A stretch of 64,000 nt of DNA from Escherichia phage vB_Eco_NicPhage. Under the pieces are notes generated by a model, which saw nothing but the letters and a program-made list of their open reading frames with translations, was not told the DNA's origin and ran no database searches. A program made the position numbers and the translations under genes. The stretch is from sequence record OY726582, one strand, 5' to 3'. Every line of letters starts with the position of its first letter. Within the stretch, counting starts at the first letter, position 1. This document shows, piece by piece, positions 1 to 22,754 of the stretch.

Positions 1-240
<240 letters not shown>

Positions 241-241
241 T

Positions 242-877
242 ATGGCAACATACTACAGATTGTATATTACAACATTTGAAACATCCACCGGTATAAAGAT
301 TTATGGTGGTAAACACAAATCAGTTTACGAAGACCCTTCAAAAGACCCTTATACTGGGTCTGGTACCTTTATACGAAGGGCCAAAAGAAAATACGGTCCG
401 TCTTGTATAAAAGAAATTATATGGTCTAAGCCATTTGAATCTAAAGCTCTAATGGACGAAGCTGAAGAGTTACTGGTAGATGAATTATCCATTTTAGAAA
501 ATTGCGCAAATCTTGTTAAAGGTGGTGCAGGCGGAAGGTCGTATATTAACCCAGAAGATAATCCATCTATAGGACAAAAACGTTCAGCCCAATCTAAAAA
601 GAAAATGTCTGACGCCGCAAAATCAAGAAAATGGACTGAAGAAGGGTTAAGAAAACGTAAAGAATCTACAGCAAGAATGTGGAAAGATTTCAAACATAGA
701 CATCCTGATTTTTCTGGTTCAAAAAATCCGGCAGCTCGAAAAGTTAGTGTAAATGGTAAAATATTTAACACCTGCAAAGAATGTGGTGAAGAATTTAATA
801 TCACATCAAGCGCGGTTATAGGCCGATGCAAAAACAACAAACCTAAATGGGCAGGATGGAATTATGTCGACGTATAA
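242..877 (+). CDS. free-standing GIY-YIG homing endonuclease (Seg-like)
   Basis: 211-aa ORF; N-terminal YRLYIT...KIYGGKH and [16 protein letters not shown] motifs match the GIY-YIG/Seg pattern also seen in the 18205 ORF; basic C-terminal region; inserted between genes 13 and 14 and overlaps gene 14 start by 14 nt. Confidence 0.7.
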
Positions 878-1628
878 TTCAAATTTATTTGCAAAGTTAG
901 AAAACCGAGAAGGCTATTCTAAAACTAATGAAACCGAGATTTTAAACAAATACGTGAACTTCAACAAATACGAAAATAGTCAAACCCTAGCTGATGTGTT
1001 AGTAGCAGAAAGCATACAGATGCGCGGTATTGAATGTTTTTATGTTCCACGTGAATATGTTGCCGTGGACCTTATCTTTGGTGAGGACCTTAAAAATAAA
1101 TTTACTAAAGCATGGAAATTTGCTGCATATCTGAACTCTTTTGAAGGTTATGAAGGAGCGAAATCGTTCTTCAGCAACTTCGGAATGCAAGTTCAAGACG
1201 AAGTTACATTATCTATTAACCCAGGTCTTTTCAAACACCAGGTCAACAATCAGGAGCCTAAGGAAGGTGATTTAATATACTTCCCAATGGACAACAGTTT
1301 GTTTGAGATTAACTGGGTTGAACCATATGACCCATTCTATCAAGTAGGTAAAAATGCGATTCGTAAAATTACTGCAGGCAAGTTTATTTACTCTGGCGAA
1401 GAAATCAATCCGGTGCTTCAGAAAAATGAAGGTATCAATATACCTGAATTTAGTGACTTGGAACTTAACCCTGTTAGAAATCTTGACGGTATCCATGACA
1501 TTAATATCGATGAATATTCTGAAGTTGAGCAAATCAATTCAGAGGCAAGTGAATACGTTGAGCCGTATGTAGTAGTTAACAACCGTGGTAGACAAAATTC
1601 ACCATTTGACGATGGGTTTATGAATTAA
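864..1628 (+). CDS. 14: neck protein gp14
   Basis: 254-aa ORF, T4 gp14-like length and position upstream of gene 15. Confidence 0.8.
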
Positions 1629-1677
1629 TAAATAGATAAGATAAAGCAAACACCGGTCGAAAGGCCGGTTAGGAGAA

Positions 1678-2629
1678 ATGATGTTTGGTTATTTTTACAA
1701 CTCGTCGTTCAGGCGATATATCACAATGATGGGCGATTTGTTTTCAAATATCCAAGTTAACCGTCAATTGTCTACAGGCAATAAATTAATTAGAGTTCCT
1801 ATTACGTATGCATCTAAAGAGCACTTTATGATGAAACTTAATAAATGGACCTCTATAAACTCACAAGAAGATGTGGCTAAAGTCGAAACTATTCTACCAC
1901 GTATAAATCTCCAAATGGTGGATTTCGTTTATAACCCAACGTTTAAAACGAATATATTGAATAACTCTCTTTTGAGTAAATCGACTAAGGATATTGTAGA
2001 CCAATACAACCCATCACCAATTAAAATGATTTTTGAACTGAGCATCTTTACTCGTTATGAAGATGATATGTTCCAAATCGTTGAGCAAATTATTCCATAT
2101 TTTCAGCCGCATTTTAATACGACTATGATTGAGCAATATGGGCAGGATATTCCATTTGAAAGGGATATTAAAGTCGTATGGATGGCAGCAGCAATGGATG
2201 AACAAATAGACGGTGATAATTTATCTCGTCGACGTTTAGAGTGGTCATTAACATTTGAAGTAAATGGATGGATGTATCCTCCGGTAGGCGCAGCTGAAGG
2301 CCTTATTAAAACGACTTATCTTGATTTTCATGCTAAACGGTGATAATTTATCTCGTCGACGTTTAGAGTGGTCATTAACATTTGAAGTAAATGGATGGAT
2401 GTATCCTCCGGTAGGCGCAGCTGAAGGCCTTATTAAAACGACTTATCTTGATTTTCATGCTAATGAACGAGACCTTCAAACAGCCGCCAGTGTTTTTGAA
2501 TCAGTTGATACAGAAATTAAACCGAGAGACGTTGAAGCACAAGATTGGAATGGTGAAGTTGAACAAACTTATACTCATGATATTCCAATCCCGTCTCCAC
2601 CAACCCCTCCTGGTCCTAGAAAACAATAA
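1678..2629 (+). pseudogene. 15: tail sheath stabiliser/completion protein gp15, frameshifted by a 127-bp tandem duplication
   Basis: ORF 1678..2343 (221 aa) ends at TGA created at the duplication junction; the rest of the gp15 C-terminus continues in another frame to 2629; removing one copy gives one ~274-aa ORF matching T4 gp15 length. Confidence 0.75.
2210..2463. repeat. perfect direct tandem duplication, 2 x 127 bp
   Basis: 2210-2336 and 2337-2463 are identical base for base; flanking bases differ, so the boundaries are exact. Confidence 0.95.
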
Positions 2630-2638
2630 GAGGTAAAT

Positions 2639-4952
<2,314 letters not shown>

Positions 4953-14696: not shown

Positions 14697-15695
14697 TTAT
14701 GATACTAATTCAATCCATGCAGGACGCAGAACATCTTGCACCATTCGGACTAATTCTTTCTTAACAAGATTCGGATTATCAGATGATGTTAATACAATAC
14801 CTTCACGAGAAGTTTCTTCCAGAATATCTTGAACAGTCAATCCCATCACTTTGCCAAAATCTTTTGGCGTTACAGTCCCAATCTTAGAAATAACATTATT
14901 AACACGATTTAATGTAACATAACAAGCTAGAACATCAAGCAAGTTTTTGTCAATTTCGGTTAATGGAACCTGAGTTTTAATAGGCTTATCAGACTTTTTC
15001 TTTTCACTGAATTTAGAGTTCTTGCACTTAATAGCTACACGAGTACCGTTTGGCAGCCATTTAGGAAAACAAGGCTTCAGAACATAACCTTCTGCTGTAT
15101 TATCGCCAATAACATTAGCATCAAATACACAATTATTTGCTTCTACAAGGTCTTCTGACGCAGTAGCATTATAAGCGGCTAAGACAGAATCAAGGTCGTT
15201 TGGAATCATGATAAGAGCATCAAATGTGCCACGTCCAAGCATTGGTGCCATTTTAAAACCGAATTCATTACAGAAATCTTGCATTTCGTAATCGGTCAAA
15301 TACGTATTATCACCACTTTCTGTATTGATAAGGATATCGAACACATAAAAATCTTTTTCACCGTAGTCAACACCTTTCTGGATTCCACCACCAGCGAATT
15401 CACCAAAGACCTGATATGATACAGCTCGAGAACTACCCATTACTTCTTGAACGTTTTTAATAGCCTTATCATACTTCTTGAGTACAATTTCATAACCATA
15501 AAAATCTTCTGCTGGAAGAATAGGGCCTGTGCGCTTGGCGCATGTGACGTTGTCACGTTCAATTATTAACGAGAAGTTAGTCCCATGGATTTTCTCACGT
15601 GCTACCCAAACACCAGTAGTCAAACCATTAGTGTAGAGTTTTTCAATAAACTTAGAGTTGTAGTGGTTTTCAAGACTGCTGTATTTCTTAAACAT
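14697..15695 (-). CDS. rnlB: RNA ligase 2 (Rnl2)
   Basis: 332-aa ORF near-identical in long stretches to remembered T4 Rnl2 ([27 protein letters not shown] nucleotidyltransferase motif). Confidence 0.92.
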
Positions 15696-15814
15696 AAATC
15701 ACCATTATAAATAATAATATCAAAATAATTAGCAGAGACTCTATCTCTGACCGGATGTTTAATTTGAATGGATAGAACCTAGATTCATTATACCATCAAA
15801 AATTGTAAAGCATA

Positions 15815-16358: not shown

Positions 16359-17489
16359 TTATGGATACGTATAGATGATACCAGTTTCCAAAGCAGTTTT
16401 ATGGATGATGTATCCATTACGTGATTCTTGAACATCAACTTCCGGATAGTCTTTCATCATCTTCTGAAGAGTGTAACGATGCAGGTAGTATTTACTATCT
16501 GGATCTTCAGTTTTCCAATCTTTACCTTCTTCAGTCATTTTTTGGATTTCATCCATAACCCACCAACCGCACCAGATGTAAGCTGAAGTACGATGTGGAA
16601 GAGGATGAACATAAGGTAGTTCACCTTCTGGTTCTGGAGCAACTTTATCAGTTACCTGAACTTGACCTTCTGCTGTAATAGTTTTGCTATCGTAATCAGT
16701 TGCAGTAATAGTTGCAGTAACTTCAATAGTTTGACTTCCAATAGACGAGGTATCAACGGTATATACATTAGTTGACCCTTCTACAGGAGAAGAATCTTTC
16801 TTCCATGAATACGCAATTTGCGCTTCTTCTGGAGCATCCGTAACATTAGCCGTAAATGTAGCCGAAGCATCTTGTTGAACATTAATAGAAGGAGGAGTCA
16901 ATGTAACCTGTGGATTCATTGTCTTCTTATTAACCGTTAATGATACTTCATTCGAAGTAACTTCCTTTGCATCATAATCTGTCGCAGTTACTTGGGCTAC
17001 ACATTTAATTCTTTTTACTCCACTTGTAGTTGGAGTATAGCTAAATGTAGAGTTAGTTTCTCCACCAACCTGTGAATCATCTACATACCACTGATACGTA
17101 GCAGACGCTCCAGCTGGTTGAGAAGCTAAGGCAGCAGTAAATTGAACTGGGGTTCCAATTACTCCAGCTGAAGGACTATTGGGAGTTACAGCTAAGGTAG
17201 TCGTTTGTGTCTTGTTTTGAACTGTGATGGTTGTAGAAGCTTCTGCTGTTTCAGCTTCAGCTTCTGGAACTGTATTTGTTGCAACTACTTTAATAGTCTT
17301 TTGACCGGCAGGTCCTTTTAGTACATAACTAAAAGTTGCTTCAGCTCCATCTTGCGGAACATCATCTACAGACCAAGCATATGTAATAGTTCCACCTCCA
17401 GTTTCACCACTGGGAGTAGCAGTAAACTGCTTAGTCTCATCTATAACTCCAGTAGGTGTTTTAGGAGTTATATCAACTGTAAAAGCCAT
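16359..17489 (-). CDS. hoc: Hoc outer capsid decoration protein (Ig-like domains)
   Basis: 376-aa ORF closely matching remembered T4 Hoc (FTVDITPKTPTGVIDETKQFTATPSG..., C-terminal capsid-binding region). Confidence 0.92.
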   Translation of the reverse strand: MAFTVDITPKTPTGVIDETKQFTATPSGETGGGTITYAWSVDDVPQDGAEATFSYVLKGPAGQKTIKVVATNTVPEAEAETAEASTTITVQNKTQTTTLAVTPNSPSAGVIGTPVQFTAALASQPAGASATYQWYVDDSQVGGETNSTFSYTPTTSGVKRIKCVAQVTATDYDAKEVTSNEVSLTVNKKTMNPQVTLTPPSINVQQDASATFTANVTDAPEEAQIAYSWKKDSSPVEGSTNVYTVDTSSIGSQTIEVTATITATDYDSKTITAEGQVQVTDKVAPEPEGELPYVHPLPHRTSAYIWCGWWVMDEIQKMTEEGKDWKTEDPDSKYYLHRYTLQKMMKDYPEVDVQESRNGYIIHKTALETGIIYTYP

Positions 17490-17498
17490 AAGTTATCC

Positions 17499-18167
17499 TT
17501 ATTTTAATGTTACGAAAGAAGAATTACGAGTTTCACGAATTAGAACTGATCCATCGCGATTAATATAATAAATTAAGCTAAATAATGTTTGGTGAGCAGA
17601 AGCATGCACAAAACTAGTTGGGCGAGATTTCCAATCTGGGGTTTCGGCTATCCATTGATAAATCCACCAAGGAACAGTAACATATCCTGGGCCTTTGCCT
17701 AATTTAATGAGTGTAGGACTAAAATTTTCAGGCAGAACAAATTTTACTTCTTTATTTACCTCTGGCTCCGGCTCTTTTTCAGATTCAACAACCTGAGTAA
17801 TTGCTTCTTCGAATTTATCATGGTCGAATTCTTTTTCTTGTTCGACAACTTCTAATACTTCAACTTGTTCTGTTGGAGAATCAAACAACAGAATAGCTTC
17901 TTCTTTAACTTCTTCGTTGGTGAAATTAACACCGTCCACATCATCTGCGGCAGTAATTAAATCGGTGATAGATAATCCATCGGTTTCAGGTAATGGTTCA
18001 TCAGCCAGTGCGTTAAGAGCTTCTTCGATATCAATAACAATATTATCGAATGATTTTGTTTTCTTAACACTAATGCCAAATTGTTCCGCATATTCAAACA
18101 GTTTAGCTTTGGCTTCCTTTTTATCAGAAAGAGCACGTAACTCTTCAATATAGTCTTTATCGATCAT
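17499..18167 (-). CDS. inh: Inh-like protein (inhibitor of prohead protease), acidic
   Basis: 222-aa acidic ORF immediately after hoc as in T4; assignment mainly by synteny. Confidence 0.55.
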   Translation of the reverse strand: MIDKDYIEELRALSDKKEAKAKLFEYAEQFGISVKKTKSFDNIVIDIEEALNALADEPLPETDGLSITDLITAADDVDGVNFTNEEVKEEAILLFDSPTEQVEVLEVVEQEKEFDHDKFEEAITQVVESEKEPEPEVNKEVKFVLPENFSPTLIKLGKGPGYVTVPWWIYQWIAETPDWKSRPTSFVHASAHQTLFSLIYYINRDGSVLIRETRNSSFVTLK

Positions 18168-18180
18168 GGTATTTCCTCAT

Positions 18181-18188
18181 TATAAATA
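18181..18188 (+). promoter_or_regulatory. late promoter TATAAATA upstream of the SegE-like endonuclease gene
   Basis: Exact TATAAATA 17-29 nt upstream of candidate ATGs at 18205 and 18217. Confidence 0.55.
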
Positions 18189-18204
18189 TAACTATATTTA
18201 TTAC

Positions 18205-18948
18205 ATGGAAAAGAGTATGTATCACTTTGTTTATGAGACCGTAAATTTAATTAATGGTAAAAAGTACATTGGCAAACATTCTACAGAAAATTTAAATGAT
18301 TCGTATCTAGGGTCAGGTGTTGCCTTAAATCGCGCTATCAAAAAATACGGAGAAGAATCATTTAAACGTTCAATAATTAAACAATTTGAAACTTCCGCTG
18401 AAGCTTTAGAATACGAAGCTCAGTTAGTAACAGAGGATTTGGTCAAATCTAACGAGTATTATAATATGCGCCAAGGCGGTGAAGGTGGAAGGTATAAGTA
18501 CACCGAAGCTGATAAGACTAAAATGTCTAATAGTGCTAAAGAACGAATAAAGAGGCTTGGTCATAATCTTTTAGGAAAACACAGATCGGAAGAAACAAAA
18601 AGAAAACTATCTGAAACAAATAAACGTCGATACTCTGAAGACCCAACATGCCACGGGCGGTATGGTACAGGAAAGCCAAAGATTGATAAAATTAAAGGTC
18701 CTAAAAATCCTACAACTCTAAATAAAATTTGTGTTAACAACGGTAAAGAAAACAGATTTATATCAGCCGAGGACCCGATGCCTGAAGGATTTGTAAAAGG
18801 AATGGTCCAACTTAATAGAAAATCTAGAAAGGGCTGTGAAGTAAAACCTACGACCACCGGCAGAATATGGGTAAATAACGGGGCTATAAATAAATTAGTA
18901 AATCCGTTATCCATCCCAGATGGATATGTTAAAGGCCGTTTAAGGTAA
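18205..18948 (+). CDS. GIY-YIG homing endonuclease, SegE-like by position (between inh and uvsW)
   Basis: GIY-YIG motifs (HFVYETVNLINGKKYIGKH, YLGSGVALNRAIKKYG, R...GGEGG) and a basic C-terminal half; track ORF starts at 18166 but the late promoter lies inside that extension, so start placed at 18205 (18217 also possible). Confidence 0.75.
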   Translation: MEKSMYHFVYETVNLINGKKYIGKHSTENLNDSYLGSGVALNRAIKKYGEESFKRSIIKQFETSAEALEYEAQLVTEDLVKSNEYYNMRQGGEGGRYKYTEADKTKMSNSAKERIKRLGHNLLGKHRSEETKRKLSETNKRRYSEDPTCHGRYGTGKPKIDKIKGPKNPTTLNKICVNNGKENRFISAEDPMPEGFVKGMVQLNRKSRKGCEVKPTTTGRIWVNNGAINKLVNPLSIPDGYVKGRLR

Positions 18949-18953
18949 TTATT

Positions 18954-20468
18954 ATGACAGATATTAAAGTACATTTTCACGATTTTAGCCATGTAAGAAT
19001 TGAATGCGACGAAAGCGTGTTCTATGAATTACGCGACTTTTTTAGCTTTGAAGCCGATGGGTACAAATTCAACCCGCGTTACAAATATGGGAACTGGGAT
19101 GGTAGAATTCGACTTTTAGATTACAACCGTTTGTTACCATATGGACTTGTAGGACAAATAAAAAAGTTCTGTAGCAATATGAGTTATTCTGTATGGGTTG
19201 ACCCTAAAATCTTTGAGACCGAAGACCTTACCAGAGAAGATTTTGACGCATGGCTTTCTAAACAAGAAATTTATTCGGGCAACGCCAAAATCGAACCACA
19301 TTGGTATCAAAAAGATGCAGTATATGAAGGACTAGTTAATCGTCGTCGAATTTTAAACCTTCCGACATCAGCAGGTAAATCACTAATCCAAGCACTTTTA
19401 GCTCGATATTATCTAGAGAACTATGAAGGTAAAATTCTCATTATCGTCCCTACAACAGCATTGACAACCCAGATGGCTAATGATTTTGTTGATTATCGCT
19501 TGTTTAGTCATTCGATGATTAAGAAAATTGGCGGTGGTGCTGATAAAGCAGACAAATCTAAAAACGACGCTCCAATTATTGTTGGCACATGGCAAACAGT
19601 AGTTAAGCAGCCTAAAGAATGGTTCTCTCAGTTCGGTATGATGATGAACGATGAATGCCACTTAGCAACAGGCAAAAGTATTTCTTCAATCATCGCAGGA
19701 TTAAATAATTGTATGTTTAAATTCGGTTTATCTGGCTCATTAAGAGACGGAAAGGCCAATGTAATGCAGTACGTAGGTATGTTCGGCGAAATCTTCCGTC
19801 CTGTTAGCACGTCTAAATTAATGGAAGATGGACAGGTAACTGAGCTTAAGATTAATAGTATTTTCCTTCGTTATCCAGACGAATTCGCCACCAAATTAAA
19901 AGGTAAAACATACCAAGAAGAAGTTAAAATTATTACCGGACTAAAACGACGTACAAAGTGGATTGCTCAACTTTCAGTCAAATTGGCTAAGAAAGACGAG
20001 AACGCTTTTGTAATGTTTAAACACGTTACACACGGTAAAGAAATATTTGAAGCTATTAAAGAGCTTGGATACGAAAAAGTTTATTACGTATCAGGTGAAG
20101 TTGATACTGAAACACGTAACGCGCTTAAAGTCATGGCAGAAAATGGTAAAGGCATTATTATTGTCGCATCATATGGAGTATTCTCTACTGGTATTTCAGT
20201 CAAGAATCTTCATCATGTTATTTTTGCCCATGGTGTTAAATCAAAAATTATCGTACTTCAAACCGTAGGTCGCGTGCTTCGTAAGCATGGTTCTAAATCT
20301 GTTGCTACAGTTTGGGATCTCATCGACGATGCAGGTGTAAAACCTAAATCATTAAATACTAAAAAGAAGTATACTCATCTTAATTACTTGTTAAAACACG
20401 GTATTGATCGTATCCAACGTTACGCTGATGAGAAATTTAACTATGTAATGAAAACAATTAATTTATAA
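18954..20468 (+). CDS. uvsW: UvsW helicase (SF2, recombination/repair)
   Basis: 504-aa ORF with helicase motifs (PTSAGKS Walker A, DECH box), T4 UvsW length. Confidence 0.9.
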   Translation: MTDIKVHFHDFSHVRIECDESVFYELRDFFSFEADGYKFNPRYKYGNWDGRIRLLDYNRLLPYGLVGQIKKFCSNMSYSVWVDPKIFETEDLTREDFDAWLSKQEIYSGNAKIEPHWYQKDAVYEGLVNRRRILNLPTSAGKSLIQALLARYYLENYEGKILIIVPTTALTTQMANDFVDYRLFSHSMIKKIGGGADKADKSKNDAPIIVGTWQTVVKQPKEWFSQFGMMMNDECHLATGKSISSIIAGLNNCMFKFGLSGSLRDGKANVMQYVGMFGEIFRPVSTSKLMEDGQVTELKINSIFLRYPDEFATKLKGKTYQEEVKIITGLKRRTKWIAQLSVKLAKKDENAFVMFKHVTHGKEIFEAIKELGYEKVYYVSGEVDTETRNALKVMAENGKGIIIVASYGVFSTGISVKNLHHVIFAHGVKSKIIVLQTVGRVLRKHGSKSVATVWDLIDDAGVKPKSLNTKKKYTHLNYLLKHGIDRIQRYADEKFNYVMKTINL

Positions 20469-20482
20469 GGGCTTCGGCCCTT
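20467..20482 (+). other. stem-loop AAGGGC-UUCG-GCCCUU between uvsW and uvsW.1
   Basis: Perfect hairpin with no U-run, directly followed by the AGGAG ribosome-binding site of uvsW.1. Confidence 0.45.
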
Positions 20483-20493
20483 AGGAGATAAAA

Positions 20494-20724
20494 ATGGTAC
20501 TTGAATTTAAACAATTTTTATACGAAGCATCTATTGACGAATTCATGGGTAAAATTGCTAGTTGTCATACCCTAGAAGGGCTTGAAGAATTGGAAGCTTA
20601 TTATAAGAAACGTATAAAAGAAACGGAATTAAAAGATACAGATGATATTTCTGTCAGGGATGCCTTAGCAGGTAAGCGTGCCGAACTTGAAGGCGATGAT
20701 GAGGATGTGGAAGAAGACTTCTAA
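20494..20724 (+). CDS. uvsW.1: UvsW.1 small acidic protein
   Basis: 76-aa ORF immediately downstream of uvsW, same size as T4 UvsW.1. Confidence 0.7.
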   Translation: MVLEFKQFLYEASIDEFMGKIASCHTLEGLEELEAYYKKRIKETELKDTDDISVRDALAGKRAELEGDDEDVEEDF

Positions 20725-20726
20725 TT

Positions 20727-20756
20727 AAAAAAAGGCCCGACCTTTTTGGAAGGGCC
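20727..20756 (-). terminator. terminator hairpin GGCCC...GGGCC with flanking A/T runs between uvsW.1 and the uvsY operon
   Basis: Inverted repeat at 20734-20756 followed on the minus strand by TTTTTTT. Confidence 0.5.
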
Positions 20757-20782
20757 AAAAACCATAGGCAAAAAAGGTAACA

Positions 20783-20950
20783 CTATAGTAAAAGTTGGGT
20801 TTCATTCAATTGCTCTTCTGAACTTTCTGAAACCGGCAATTGTTGGACATAATTATAACAAGGACCAGGATGTGCTGGACCTTTGTCTGTTTCAACAACC
20901 AATGCAGAATCGATTGGAGTTTTACAGACAACACAAATCTTATCTGACAT
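20783..20950 (-). CDS. small Cys-containing protein (uvsY.-2-like position), 55 aa
   Basis: Own translation: MSDKICVVCKTPIDSALVVETDKGPAHPGPCYNYVQQLPVSESSEEQLNETQLLL, preceded by GGAGG; below the 60-aa cutoff of the ORF track. Confidence 0.45.
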   Translation of the reverse strand: MSDKICVVCKTPIDSALVVETDKGPAHPGPCYNYVQQLPVSESSEEQLNETQLLL

Positions 20951-22742: not shown

Positions 22743-22750
22743 TATTTATA
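22743..22750 (-). promoter_or_regulatory. late promoter TATAAATA (minus strand) for genes 26/25
   Basis: Plus-strand TATTTATA is TATAAATA on the minus strand, about 20 nt upstream of the gene 26 ATG. Confidence 0.55.
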
Positions 22751-22754
22751 AATA
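22747..22754 (+). promoter_or_regulatory. late promoter TATAAATA (plus strand) for gene 51
   Basis: TATAAATA 18 nt upstream of the gene 51 ATG; overlaps the minus-strand late promoter. Confidence 0.55.

Follow-up and report, generated by a model that had tools for sequence, protein, structure and literature searches.

A predicted SegE-family homing endonuclease gene between inh and uvsW of a Mosigvirus-type T4-like coliphage

The inh-uvsW locus and the start of the endonuclease gene

The stretch of DNA analysed here (the window; 64,000 nucleotides) contains an open frame of 260 amino acids on the plus strand at 18166-18948, which was confirmed. The frame lies head-to-head with inh (17499-18167, minus strand) and ends 5 nt before uvsW (18954-20468, also plus strand), the helicase gene that adjoins the insertion described below (Pfam UvsW_N, 1e-45; ResIII, DEAD and Helicase_C). 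These coordinates agree with a sequence-only reading of the window, which had described a GIY-YIG homing endonuclease gene of the SegE type between inh and uvsW and divergent from inh. Its family assignment is supported by Pfam matches and by the position of the gene at the same locus as segE of phage T4. We identify the gene from its sequence as an intact, selfish SegE-family homing gene in a Mosigvirus-type T4-like coliphage.

In-frame ATGs are present at 18166, 18205 and 18217. Comparison with related alleles identifies ATG 18217 as the true start, giving a coding sequence of 18217-18948 (plus strand; stop codon TAA at 18946-18948) for a 243-amino acid endonuclease. This codon aligns with the annotated ATG of T4 segE, where the start context is alike (CGGAAAATAGTATG vs TGGAAAAGAGTATG), and with the GTG of the allele in Yersinia phage MHG19. 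It is preceded by a purine-rich, Shine-Dalgarno-like stretch, GGAAAAGAG (18207-18215, plus strand), at the place where T4 has CGGAAAATAG; no purine run was found ahead of ATG 18166 or ATG 18205. NCBI holds an identical 243-amino acid protein under the name 'GIY-YIG nuclease family protein', and in phages NBG1, KAW3E185 and KMB38 the 243-amino acid protein is annotated from the equivalent start. The sequence-only reading had doubted position 18166, correctly so, as T4 has no ATG there. It had proposed 18205 or 18217 instead, and only the second of these is conserved in T4 and MHG19; ATG 18205 is absent from T4.

Translation from ATG 18205, yielding 247 amino acids with the N-terminus MEKSMYHF..., is quite unlikely. 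That codon is in frame, lies past the predicted start of the late transcript, and is used in the JM17 and ESh27 records and by the gene caller on contig SRR19777222_29265. However, this position is TCG in T4 and is not an ATG in MHG19 either. A leader beginning at about 18194 would measure only ~11 nt, and GIY-YIG enzymes of the SegE-type family begin 4-5 residues ahead of the first beta-strand. ATG 18205 also occurs in phages that lack the gene, where it opens a frame of just 3 codons, and it is therefore a leftover of the ancestral spacer. The main value of the analysis lies in the annotation: a start at ATG 18217, a SegE-family homing endonuclease, and a uvsW that would stay late-expressed through one captured and one embedded promoter.

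Domain architecture and relation to other endonucleases

The GIY-YIG catalytic domain spans residues 1-95 (18217-18501, plus strand) according to Pfam, a family alignment and an AlphaFold model. The domain search that the sequence-only reading had proposed as a check returned two N-terminal matches above the Pfam cut-offs, SegE_GIY-YIG (PF19835; 29.7 bits vs a cut-off of 25) and GIY-YIG (PF01541; 25.8 bits vs 22.6), and the protein also matched PHROG 314, 'homing endonuclease' (5.5e-43). In the family alignment, all 117 relatives have Y6, Y17, G19, Y30, G32, N83 and G88, and H21 and E67 are almost invariant; Y6, Y17, G19, E67 and N83 are all identical in the active T4 SegE. A counterpart of I-TevI's catalytic residue Arg27 was not found in the SegE-type subfamily.

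Residues 1-80 were modelled with pLDDT values of 97-98, and the predicted structure contains the three-stranded sheet/helix fold of the catalytic domain of I-TevI, the T4 td intron endonuclease and structural prototype for the GIY-YIG homing endonucleases. Structures of that domain, 1mk0 and 1ln0, were the best PDB matches of the model (probability 1.00, target TM 0.63), with a sequence identity of ~21% in the structural alignment. A sequence search of the PDB gave chance matches only (E ~0.6-0.7), and a fold search was therefore required to reach I-TevI. The two proteins also share a modular layout in which a linker joins the catalytic domain to DNA-binding modules. In contrast to the intron-encoded I-TevI, the gene described here is free-standing; Pfam detected no zinc finger or helix-turn-helix domain, and no operator or autorepression is evident. 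Late expression has been described for I-TevI (PMC2988022) and is predicted here from the sequence.

The C-terminal half was expected to be basic, and residues 96-243 indeed contain 34 Lys and Arg vs 15 Asp and Glu (pI 10.2). The first part is a basic helical linker (18493-18612, plus strand) with the NUMOD3-like motif LGKHRSEETKRKLSE, which scored 17.1 bits against NUMOD3, under the Pfam cut-off of 20.4; PF07460 matches are precomputed for many relatives of the protein. Helices are predicted in the AlphaFold model at residues 97-114 and 125-140. Two related modules follow on the plus strand. The first, 'C/W-V-N-N-G ... P-E-G-F-V-K-G' (18712-18816), is presumed to be a DNA-binding unit and has a predicted beta-hairpin at residues 170-183. 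The second, 'W-V-N-N-G-A-I-N-K ... P-D-G-Y-V-K-G-R' (18847-18945), has a predicted beta-hairpin at residues 217-228 (pLDDT ~95), is matched by PHROG 10820 over residues 229-259 of the 260-amino acid frame, and is also found in the C-termini of phage HNH endonucleases.

T4 SegE (205 amino acids; segE was formerly hoc.2) shares the site between inh (hoc.1) and uvsW, the orientation, the GIY-YIG domain and the two C-terminal NNG modules. The insertion of segE between inh and uvsW, with uvsW as its target, has been listed previously (PMC2988022 Table 1), and T4 SegE homes with an efficiency near 100%, with co-conversion (PMC2330249). The two proteins are 49% identical in a tblastn comparison and 61% identical when aligned columns are counted, with about two-thirds identity in residues 1-95. 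The proteins differ in a segment of ~50 residues, including the NUMOD3-like linker, that falls in an alignment gap of T4 SegE, and in an 11-residue C-terminal tail found only in T4 SegE. The phages differ in genus as well (Mosigvirus here, Tequatrovirus for T4).

The alleles of MHG19 (216 amino acids) and of contig SRR19777222_29265 (187 amino acids as called) are also located between inh and uvsW. Over 18217-18615, which includes the NUMOD3-like linker, the contig allele and the gene described here share 84% DNA identity. Both alleles have one C-terminal NNG module instead of two, and their sequence is unrelated where our gene resembles T4 segE (73% DNA identity over 18723-18939). The window allele is therefore a mosaic of the two types. 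A recent recombinant origin was rejected, because identity to the nearest relative is only 84% for one half and 73% for the other. Given the mosaic and the architectural differences from T4 SegE, we regard the protein as a family member that is not orthologous to T4 SegE. A search of the literature on Mosigvirus homing endonucleases returned nothing specific. The gene is a further case of a well-known kind that leaves the current understanding of homing endonucleases unchanged, and it provides a natural example of several distinct alleles of one endonuclease family that use a single site across different genera of T4-like phages.

In GIY-YIG enzymes, the length of the linker fixes the distance from the binding site to the cleavage site. 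If the protein were a functional hybrid, with a catalytic domain and long NUMOD3 linker of the SRR19777222_29265 type joined to a T4-type double module, its cut position may thus differ from that of T4 SegE. We consider such a hybrid possible but unlikely. If it exists, genomes that resist other SegE alleles, or already contain one, could be open to its attack, and the inh-uvsW spacer would be a contested site for at least four endonuclease alleles.

The insertion and its presumed traces in uvsW

Comparison with T4 segE and with genomes lacking the insertion, as the sequence-only reading had recommended, placed the gene at the same site as in T4 and revealed a spacer of 50 nt in the empty loci. 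Related empty-site phages lack a 737-nt segment with exact boundaries at 18209-18945 (plus strand); the alignment gap against phage OLB35 spans 18209-18952. Both ends of the insertion are at a GG. The GG of the Shine-Dalgarno-like stretch ahead of ATG 18217 comes from the ancestral spacer, so that the cassette takes its ribosome-binding site from a GG that was already there and restores an AAGG to uvsW. This AAGG (18942-18945, plus strand) is contributed by the last endonuclease codons and lies 8 nt before the uvsW ATG at 18954; in the empty-site phage Mizar, the annotation assigns the uvsW ribosome-binding site to the equivalent GGT.

The gene is present in 10 of 530 phage records that have the inh-uvsW locus, and the 10 carriers fall among roughly 145 records with flanks at least 95% identical. 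Presence/absence polymorphism at a fixed site was thus found among close relatives, and the empty loci examined (six from Mosigvirus, and RB32) retain the promoter in their 50-nt spacer. The rarity of the gene fits a recent invasion and equally a gene that is being lost.

Immediately downstream of the insertion, the uvsW 5' end carries a cluster of substitutions (18953-18998, plus strand), presumed to be a remnant of the homing site together with a co-conversion tract. Relative to OLB35, these 46 nt contain 10 differences and the final 214 nt of left flank contain none (Poisson P = 5e-9 for the cluster against the uvsW background rate). Positions 18953, 18959 and 18962 are fixed differences between carriers and non-carriers, and a 70-nt uvsW 5' variant occurs at 90% identity or more in just 10 records, in linkage with the gene. 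Several of the substitutions are identical in T4 and in the carrier allele of contig SRR19777222_29265. The ends of the tract vary among seven carriers, as BEU50 and ESh27 show, with BEU50 back to the empty-type haplotype by 18978. In the same seven carriers the gene differs by at most 4 nt, whereas the hoc and uvsW backgrounds are far more divergent. A near-identical gene in divergent backgrounds, combined with varying tract ends, points to recent movement, and the clustered, gene-linked substitutions of variable extent are consistent with a signature of homing with co-conversion. The locus is also a natural example of presumed co-conversion tracts of unequal length. All seven carriers have an intact reading frame with 0-1 amino acid changes each; the two amino acid changes among about eight variable sites are too few for a test of purifying selection.

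Late promoters and the proposed homing cycle

An exact T4-type late promoter octamer, TATAAATA, was confirmed at 18181-18188 (plus strand), just upstream of the gene as the sequence-only reading had reported. In T4-type late genes this octamer is expected some 20-40 nt before the start codon, and the distance to ATG 18217 is 28 nt. The window contains 19 such octamers vs 7.4 +/- 2.5 expected, and 0 shuffles reached 19. T4 segE has the same upstream octamer, and the element is kept at the equivalent position in 14 of 14 related loci (seven carriers, two empty sites, T4, RB5, AV120, MHG19 and one metagenome contig). In empty sites it is found 29 nt upstream of the uvsW ATG. Because genomes without the insertion have it there, the promoter is ancestral to uvsW; by this comparison it is not endonuclease-specific and was captured from uvsW by the 737-nt insertion. 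Transcription of T4 segE begins at a promoter in the non-coding DNA ahead of it (PMC2988022), and a late promoter drives uvsW (PMC3016281); together with the sequence, the T4 precedent leads us to infer that the endonuclease gene is driven by this late promoter.

A near-consensus late promoter, AATAAATA, faces inh at 18195-18202 (minus strand), and the same element is present in T4 (locus 3036-3043). The two elements form a divergent promoter palindrome within an inverted repeat (18172-18190 / 18193-18211). We infer that the minus-strand element is a promoter for inh; a late promoter upstream of T4 inh has been described (PMC2988022). A search of the plus strand from 17683 to 20133 gave no sigma-70-like promoter, and the MotA-box core TGCTT is absent from 17901-18960.

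A second exact TATAAATA is embedded in the gene at 18885-18892 (plus strand), in the Ala-Ile-Asn-Lys codons of the last module and 61 nt before the uvsW ATG. The sequence-only reading did not mention this element. It is present in 7 of 7 carriers, and the MHG19 and SRR19777222_29265 alleles, which have the upstream octamer too, have it 58 nt before uvsW, whereas T4-type alleles, including T4 itself, have AATAAATA at this position. T4 segE is known to contain an embedded promoter for the downstream gene (PMC2988022). The embedded octamer is a candidate replacement late promoter that probably serves uvsW. It is possible, though unlikely, that this second role constrains the Ile-Asn-Lys codons. 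A host-gene promoter within the 3' part of an endonuclease frame is likewise seen for T4 segG and gene 32, an arrangement that has been described with segE listed among the cases (PMC2988022); here there is a single candidate late promoter that coincides with a conserved coding motif. With the captured and embedded promoters uvsW would stay late-expressed, and the locus offers a clean natural example of a homing cassette that separates a host gene precisely from its promoter and ribosome-binding site.

In a rival reading, the endonuclease is retired or domesticated and has ceased to home, and the sole reason for its retention is that a deletion would remove the embedded promoter and ribosome-binding site of uvsW. 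Both the embedded TATAAATA and the AAGG do lie within the gene, the same retention argument has been made for T4 seg genes (PMC2988022), and the gene is rare among related phages. We nevertheless judge this reading improbable: all seven carriers have an intact frame with the few changes given above, every residue invariant in the 117 relatives is still present, and the gene is near-identical in divergent backgrounds with varying co-conversion tract ends. Moreover, the large majority of relatives lack the gene and their uvsW thrives, so a pressure to retain the gene would be insufficient by itself to explain its acquisition.

We consider it highly likely that the 243-amino acid protein is a SegE-type free-standing endonuclease, encoded by a cassette between the uvsW promoter/ribosome-binding site and the uvsW start, that homes with co-conversion. 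Insertion between the uvsW late promoter and uvsW accounts for the ancestral TATAAATA ahead of the gene. Late in infection, gp55-dependent late RNA polymerase would initiate at about 18194, and the mRNA would be translated from AUG 18217. Since no terminator was found in 17400-20800, and hence none between the endonuclease gene and uvsW, the mRNA would read on into uvsW. In a cell co-infected by a relative without the gene, the C-terminal modules would bind the intact inh-uvsW spacer or uvsW 5' end through the basic NUMOD3-like helix and the two 'NNG...PxGFxKG' hairpins, and the GIY-YIG domain would cleave near the bound site. Recombinational repair off the carrier genome would then copy the gene together with a variable length of flanking uvsW. 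In the carrier itself, the splitting of the site by the insertion and the adjacent substitutions at 18953, 18959 and 18962 would both give protection.

Hairpins that block early read-through translation are known for I-TevI and T4 gene e. Masking of the ribosome-binding site by such a structure was not supported here: the hairpin at 18165-18225 has just -10.8 kcal/mol (z = -1.5), and RNA structure was unremarkable in the late leader and at the uvsW junction. These values also bear on the suggestion that the upstream TATAAATA chiefly drives uvsW while the endonuclease is poorly or never translated, a silent cargo. The promoter is older than the insertion, seg ribosome-binding sites are poorly spaced, and homing endonucleases are generally low in expression (PMC2988022). 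Against this, there is no significant RNA structure over the start (z = -1.5 and -0.15), the promoter-to-start distance of 28 nt nearly equals the 29 nt to uvsW in empty sites, and the co-conversion signature requires that the nuclease was expressed at some time. A silent gene thus seems very unlikely, and an expressed, homing endonuclease is preferred.

The sequence-only reading had also pointed to a second homing endonuclease, at position 242, with different regulation. The frame at 242-877 is indeed a second Seg-like gene, with a match to PHROG 314 (2.6e-37). It begins 2 nt past the stop of its upstream gene, and an exact octamer scan found no TATAAATA at window positions 1 to 4947, a region that includes this frame; regulation that differs from that of the SegE-type gene is plausible from these features. 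The two proteins are 32% identical across the N-terminal 147 amino acids.

A SegE-family endonuclease gene between inh and uvsW

The window belongs to a T4-like coliphage of the genus Mosigvirus, and four phages (JM17, NBG1, mar005p1 and NRG-P0074) are 99.0-99.4% identical to it over 17500-19400. As the sequence-only reading had described, the flagged ORF (18166-18948, + strand) is divergent from inh (17499-18167, -) and precedes uvsW (18954-20468, +). Beyond these lie hoc (16359-17489, -) on the inh side and uvsW.1 (20494-20724, +) on the other. Its assignment as a SegE-type GIY-YIG homing endonuclease was borne out by domain searches: Pfam SegE_GIY-YIG (29.7 bits, cut-off 25) and GIY-YIG (25.8 bits, cut-off 22.6) were both detected and PHROG 314 'homing endonuclease' matched at 5.5e-43, with a NUMOD3 match that was weak (17.1 bits, under the cut-off of 20.4). 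The C-terminal part (residues 96-243) is indeed basic, with a pI of 10.2. Sequences identical to the gene are already in databases under a homing endonuclease annotation, and NCBI holds the identical 243-aa protein as 'GIY-YIG nuclease family protein'. In an AlphaFold model based on 117 relatives (mean pLDDT 83, and 97-98 across the first 80 residues), a compact N-terminal domain, for which the I-TevI catalytic domain (1mk0, probability 1.00) is the top PDB hit, is followed by a pair of long helices (97-114, 125-140), a disordered stretch and two small beta-hairpin modules.

T4 segE lies on the uvsW strand between inh and uvsW (PMC2988022 Table 1), exactly the place that the window gene occupies. 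The two proteins align well at both ends (window residues 1-95 and 166-243), with 61% identity of aligned columns (49% by tblastn), but the window protein has about 50 additional middle residues, including the NUMOD3-like LGKHRSEETKRKLSE, and lacks the 11-residue tail of T4 SegE. Two further family alleles are encoded between inh and uvsW, in Yersinia phage MHG19 (216 aa) and a metagenome contig (SRR19777222_29265; 187 aa). At the DNA level the window gene is a mosaic that resembles the contig allele over 18217-18615 (84% identity) and T4 segE over 18723-18939 (73% identity), and no extended match of the latter segment to the MHG19 or contig alleles was found. A recent recombinant origin was rejected since both parts are too diverged. 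Among the 117 relatives the family is modular, with a SegE-type catalytic domain, zero to several NUMOD3 repeats and then one or two C-terminal 'W-x-N-N-G ... P-x-G-F-x-K-G-R' modules; the window gene is a new mosaic member of this well-characterised family.

Three in-frame ATGs are available, at 18166, 18205 and 18217. The proposal that the start is not 18166 but 18205 or 18217 is supported for 18217 but not for 18205. The annotated T4 ATG (in ...TATAAATATAGATATATTTATTACTCGGAAAATAGTATGTACCACTTT...) aligns with 18217, as does the GTG start of the MHG19 allele, which is preceded by GAGGAAAT; T4 has ATA at the 18166 position and TCG at the 18205 position. ATG 18166 is upstream of the promoter and overlaps the opposite-strand inh start codon. 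Translation from 18205 is disfavoured by this comparative evidence: ATG 18205 is a remnant of the ancestral spacer because phages lacking the gene also have it, in a frame that reads just ATG-GTA-ATT-TGA. A purine-rich stretch (GGAAAAGAG) precedes 18217 alone among the three. We therefore take the gene as 18217-18948, 243 aa. GenBank records of near-identical phages disagree, with the 18217 equivalent in NBG1, KAW3E185 and KMB38 (2218-2949 in L001, L011 and L013) and the 18205 equivalent in JM17 and ESh27 (2206-2949 in L010 and L012); the gene is variously named 'hypothetical protein', 'group I intron endonuclease' and 'homing endonuclease' across these records.

Insertion boundaries and late promoters

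The gene is present in only 10 of 530 phage records matching the locus, and the next-best records align as two separate pieces that cover 61% of the query. In the non-carrier loci that were examined, those of OLB35, RB32 and five further Mosigviruses, a 50-nt spacer separates inh from uvsW and has the late-promoter octamer TATAAATA 29 nt ahead of the uvsW ATG; late-promoter expression of uvsW is known (PMC3016281). The insert (18209-18945, 737 nt) starts directly after GG and ends with GG. Bounded in this way and placed after the promoter, the cassette would be served by the resident promoter and the resident GG. The promoter-to-ATG spacing for the endonuclease gene is 28 nt, nearly that of uvsW in empty sites, and the cassette supplies a new AAGG 8 nt ahead of the uvsW ATG. 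The late promoter noted just upstream of the gene is present as an exact TATAAATA at 18181-18188 (+), and the same octamer in empty-site spacers shows it to be the captured uvsW promoter, older than the gene and not brought by it. With these refinements of start, promoter origin and embedded promoter, the sequence-only interpretation is supported.

A second exact TATAAATA lies inside the cassette at 18885-18892, 61 nt ahead of uvsW, where the last presumed DNA-binding module has the codons GCT-ATA-AAT-AAA (Ala-Ile-Asn-Lys) that spell it. It is found in all seven carriers examined and, at 58 nt, in the MHG19 (L008 3076-3083) and contig (L009 2477-2484) alleles; T4-type alleles have AATAAATA instead. 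Among the four types of SegE-family allele at this locus, three have an exact octamer 58-61 nt before uvsW, in conserved Ile-Asn-Lys codons. The embedded promoter probably serves uvsW, and its codons may be under a dual coding and regulatory constraint. The layout matches that published for T4 segE, whose own promoter is in non-coding DNA ahead of it and which has the downstream gene's promoter embedded within it (PMC2988022). A search for a terminator, sigma-70-like promoter or MotA-box core that would alter this picture found none. A minus-strand AATAAATA (18202 to 18195) is directed towards inh, and the result is a small divergent promoter palindrome that T4 has too. In phage AV120, a T4-type carrier, a 6-nt tandem repeat (L006 1459-1472, TATAAATATAAATA) doubles the late promoter upstream of segE into two overlapping TATAAATA octamers.

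Probable traces of homing

Relative to the non-carrier OLB35, the last 214 nt of the left flank show no differences, the first 46 nt of uvsW (18953-18998) show 10, and the remainder of uvsW differs by 1.6%, a background against which this cluster has a Poisson probability of 5e-9. A 70-nt query over the stretch reached ≥90% identity in just as many records (10) as have the gene. Mosigvirus (OLB35) and Tequatrovirus (RB32) empty sites have identical ATGACTGACATTAAAGTACATTTTTATGATTTTAGTCACGTG, and the three carrier lineages with an aligned counterpart (window, T4 and the contig) have GAC->GAT, TAT->CAC/CAT (Tyr9His) and CAC->CAT in common. Only 18953, 18959 and 18962 are fixed between seven carriers and six non-carriers; the carrier BEU50 has returned to the empty-type haplotype by 18978, and uvsW codon 9 is still TAT in the carrier ESh27. 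The gene itself differs by ≤4 nt among the seven carriers, with no amino-acid change in five and one each in JM17 and KAW3E185. Repeated double-strand-break repair with co-conversion would be expected to leave such variable-length tracts beside a near-invariant gene, and the tracts put the likely target at the spacer/uvsW 5' end, the region that T4 SegE is reported to cleave (PMC2330249; PMC2988022). The intact ORF and the variable tracts disfavour the possibility that the gene is a retired one, kept for the uvsW promoter and ribosome-binding site now inside it. For a further rival, that the endonuclease is silent cargo on a uvsW message, an occluding RNA structure was looked for and none was found. 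In the most likely mechanism, a late transcript would begin about 6 nt past the octamer, near 18194, be translated from 18217 and continue into uvsW. The C-terminal modules would then bind the uninterrupted site of a co-infecting non-carrier, the GIY-YIG domain would cleave it, and repair off the carrier would copy the cassette with some flanking uvsW sequence. The carrier would escape cutting through both the splitting of the site by the insertion and the adjacent substitutions.

The carriers' hoc genes differ heavily; for instance, hoc accounts for 69 of the 93 positions at which the window and NBG1 differ over 16667-20700. Among these otherwise ~99% identical phages hoc is much more variable than its neighbours, and it has indels relative to OLB35.

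Other features of the window

The second homing endonuclease proposed at 242 was also recovered, as a Seg-like free-standing gene (242-877, +) with a PHROG 314 match of 2.6e-37 and 32% identity to the SegE-like protein over the N-terminus. Pfam GIY-YIG was not detected in it, and an I-TevI DNA-binding domain scored 22.6, below the cut-off of 27. It begins 2 nt past the stop of a head-tail adaptor gene (end at 1-240; taken to be gene 13) and overlaps by 14 nt a neck-protein gene (864-1628; taken to be gene 14), and no TATAAATA lies upstream of it within the window. Farther on, gene 15 (tail sheath stabilizer) contains a 127-nt head-to-tail duplication (2207-2333 and 2334-2460, 99% identical). 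As 127 is not a multiple of 3, ORF 1678-2343 stops after 221 aa, and what remains (2321-2629) lies in a different frame. The best relatives listed lack the duplication, since they cover 574 nt against the 701 nt of the query. Candidate explanations are an assembly artefact, a genuine mutant of an essential gene or a case needing a frameshift.

The TATAAATA octamer is enriched in the window (19 copies versus 7.4 +/- 2.5 expected). One exact copy at 15706-15713 (+), just beyond the start of rnlB (14697-15695, -), is directed into a minus-strand gene block (24.2, 24.3, hoc and inh); it could be an antisense late promoter or a match by chance. At 22743-22754, exact octamers overlap on both strands (22743-22750, -; 22747-22754, +) as a compact divergent late-promoter palindrome, an arrangement that T4 also has between genes 26 and 51 (L005 7451-7462).
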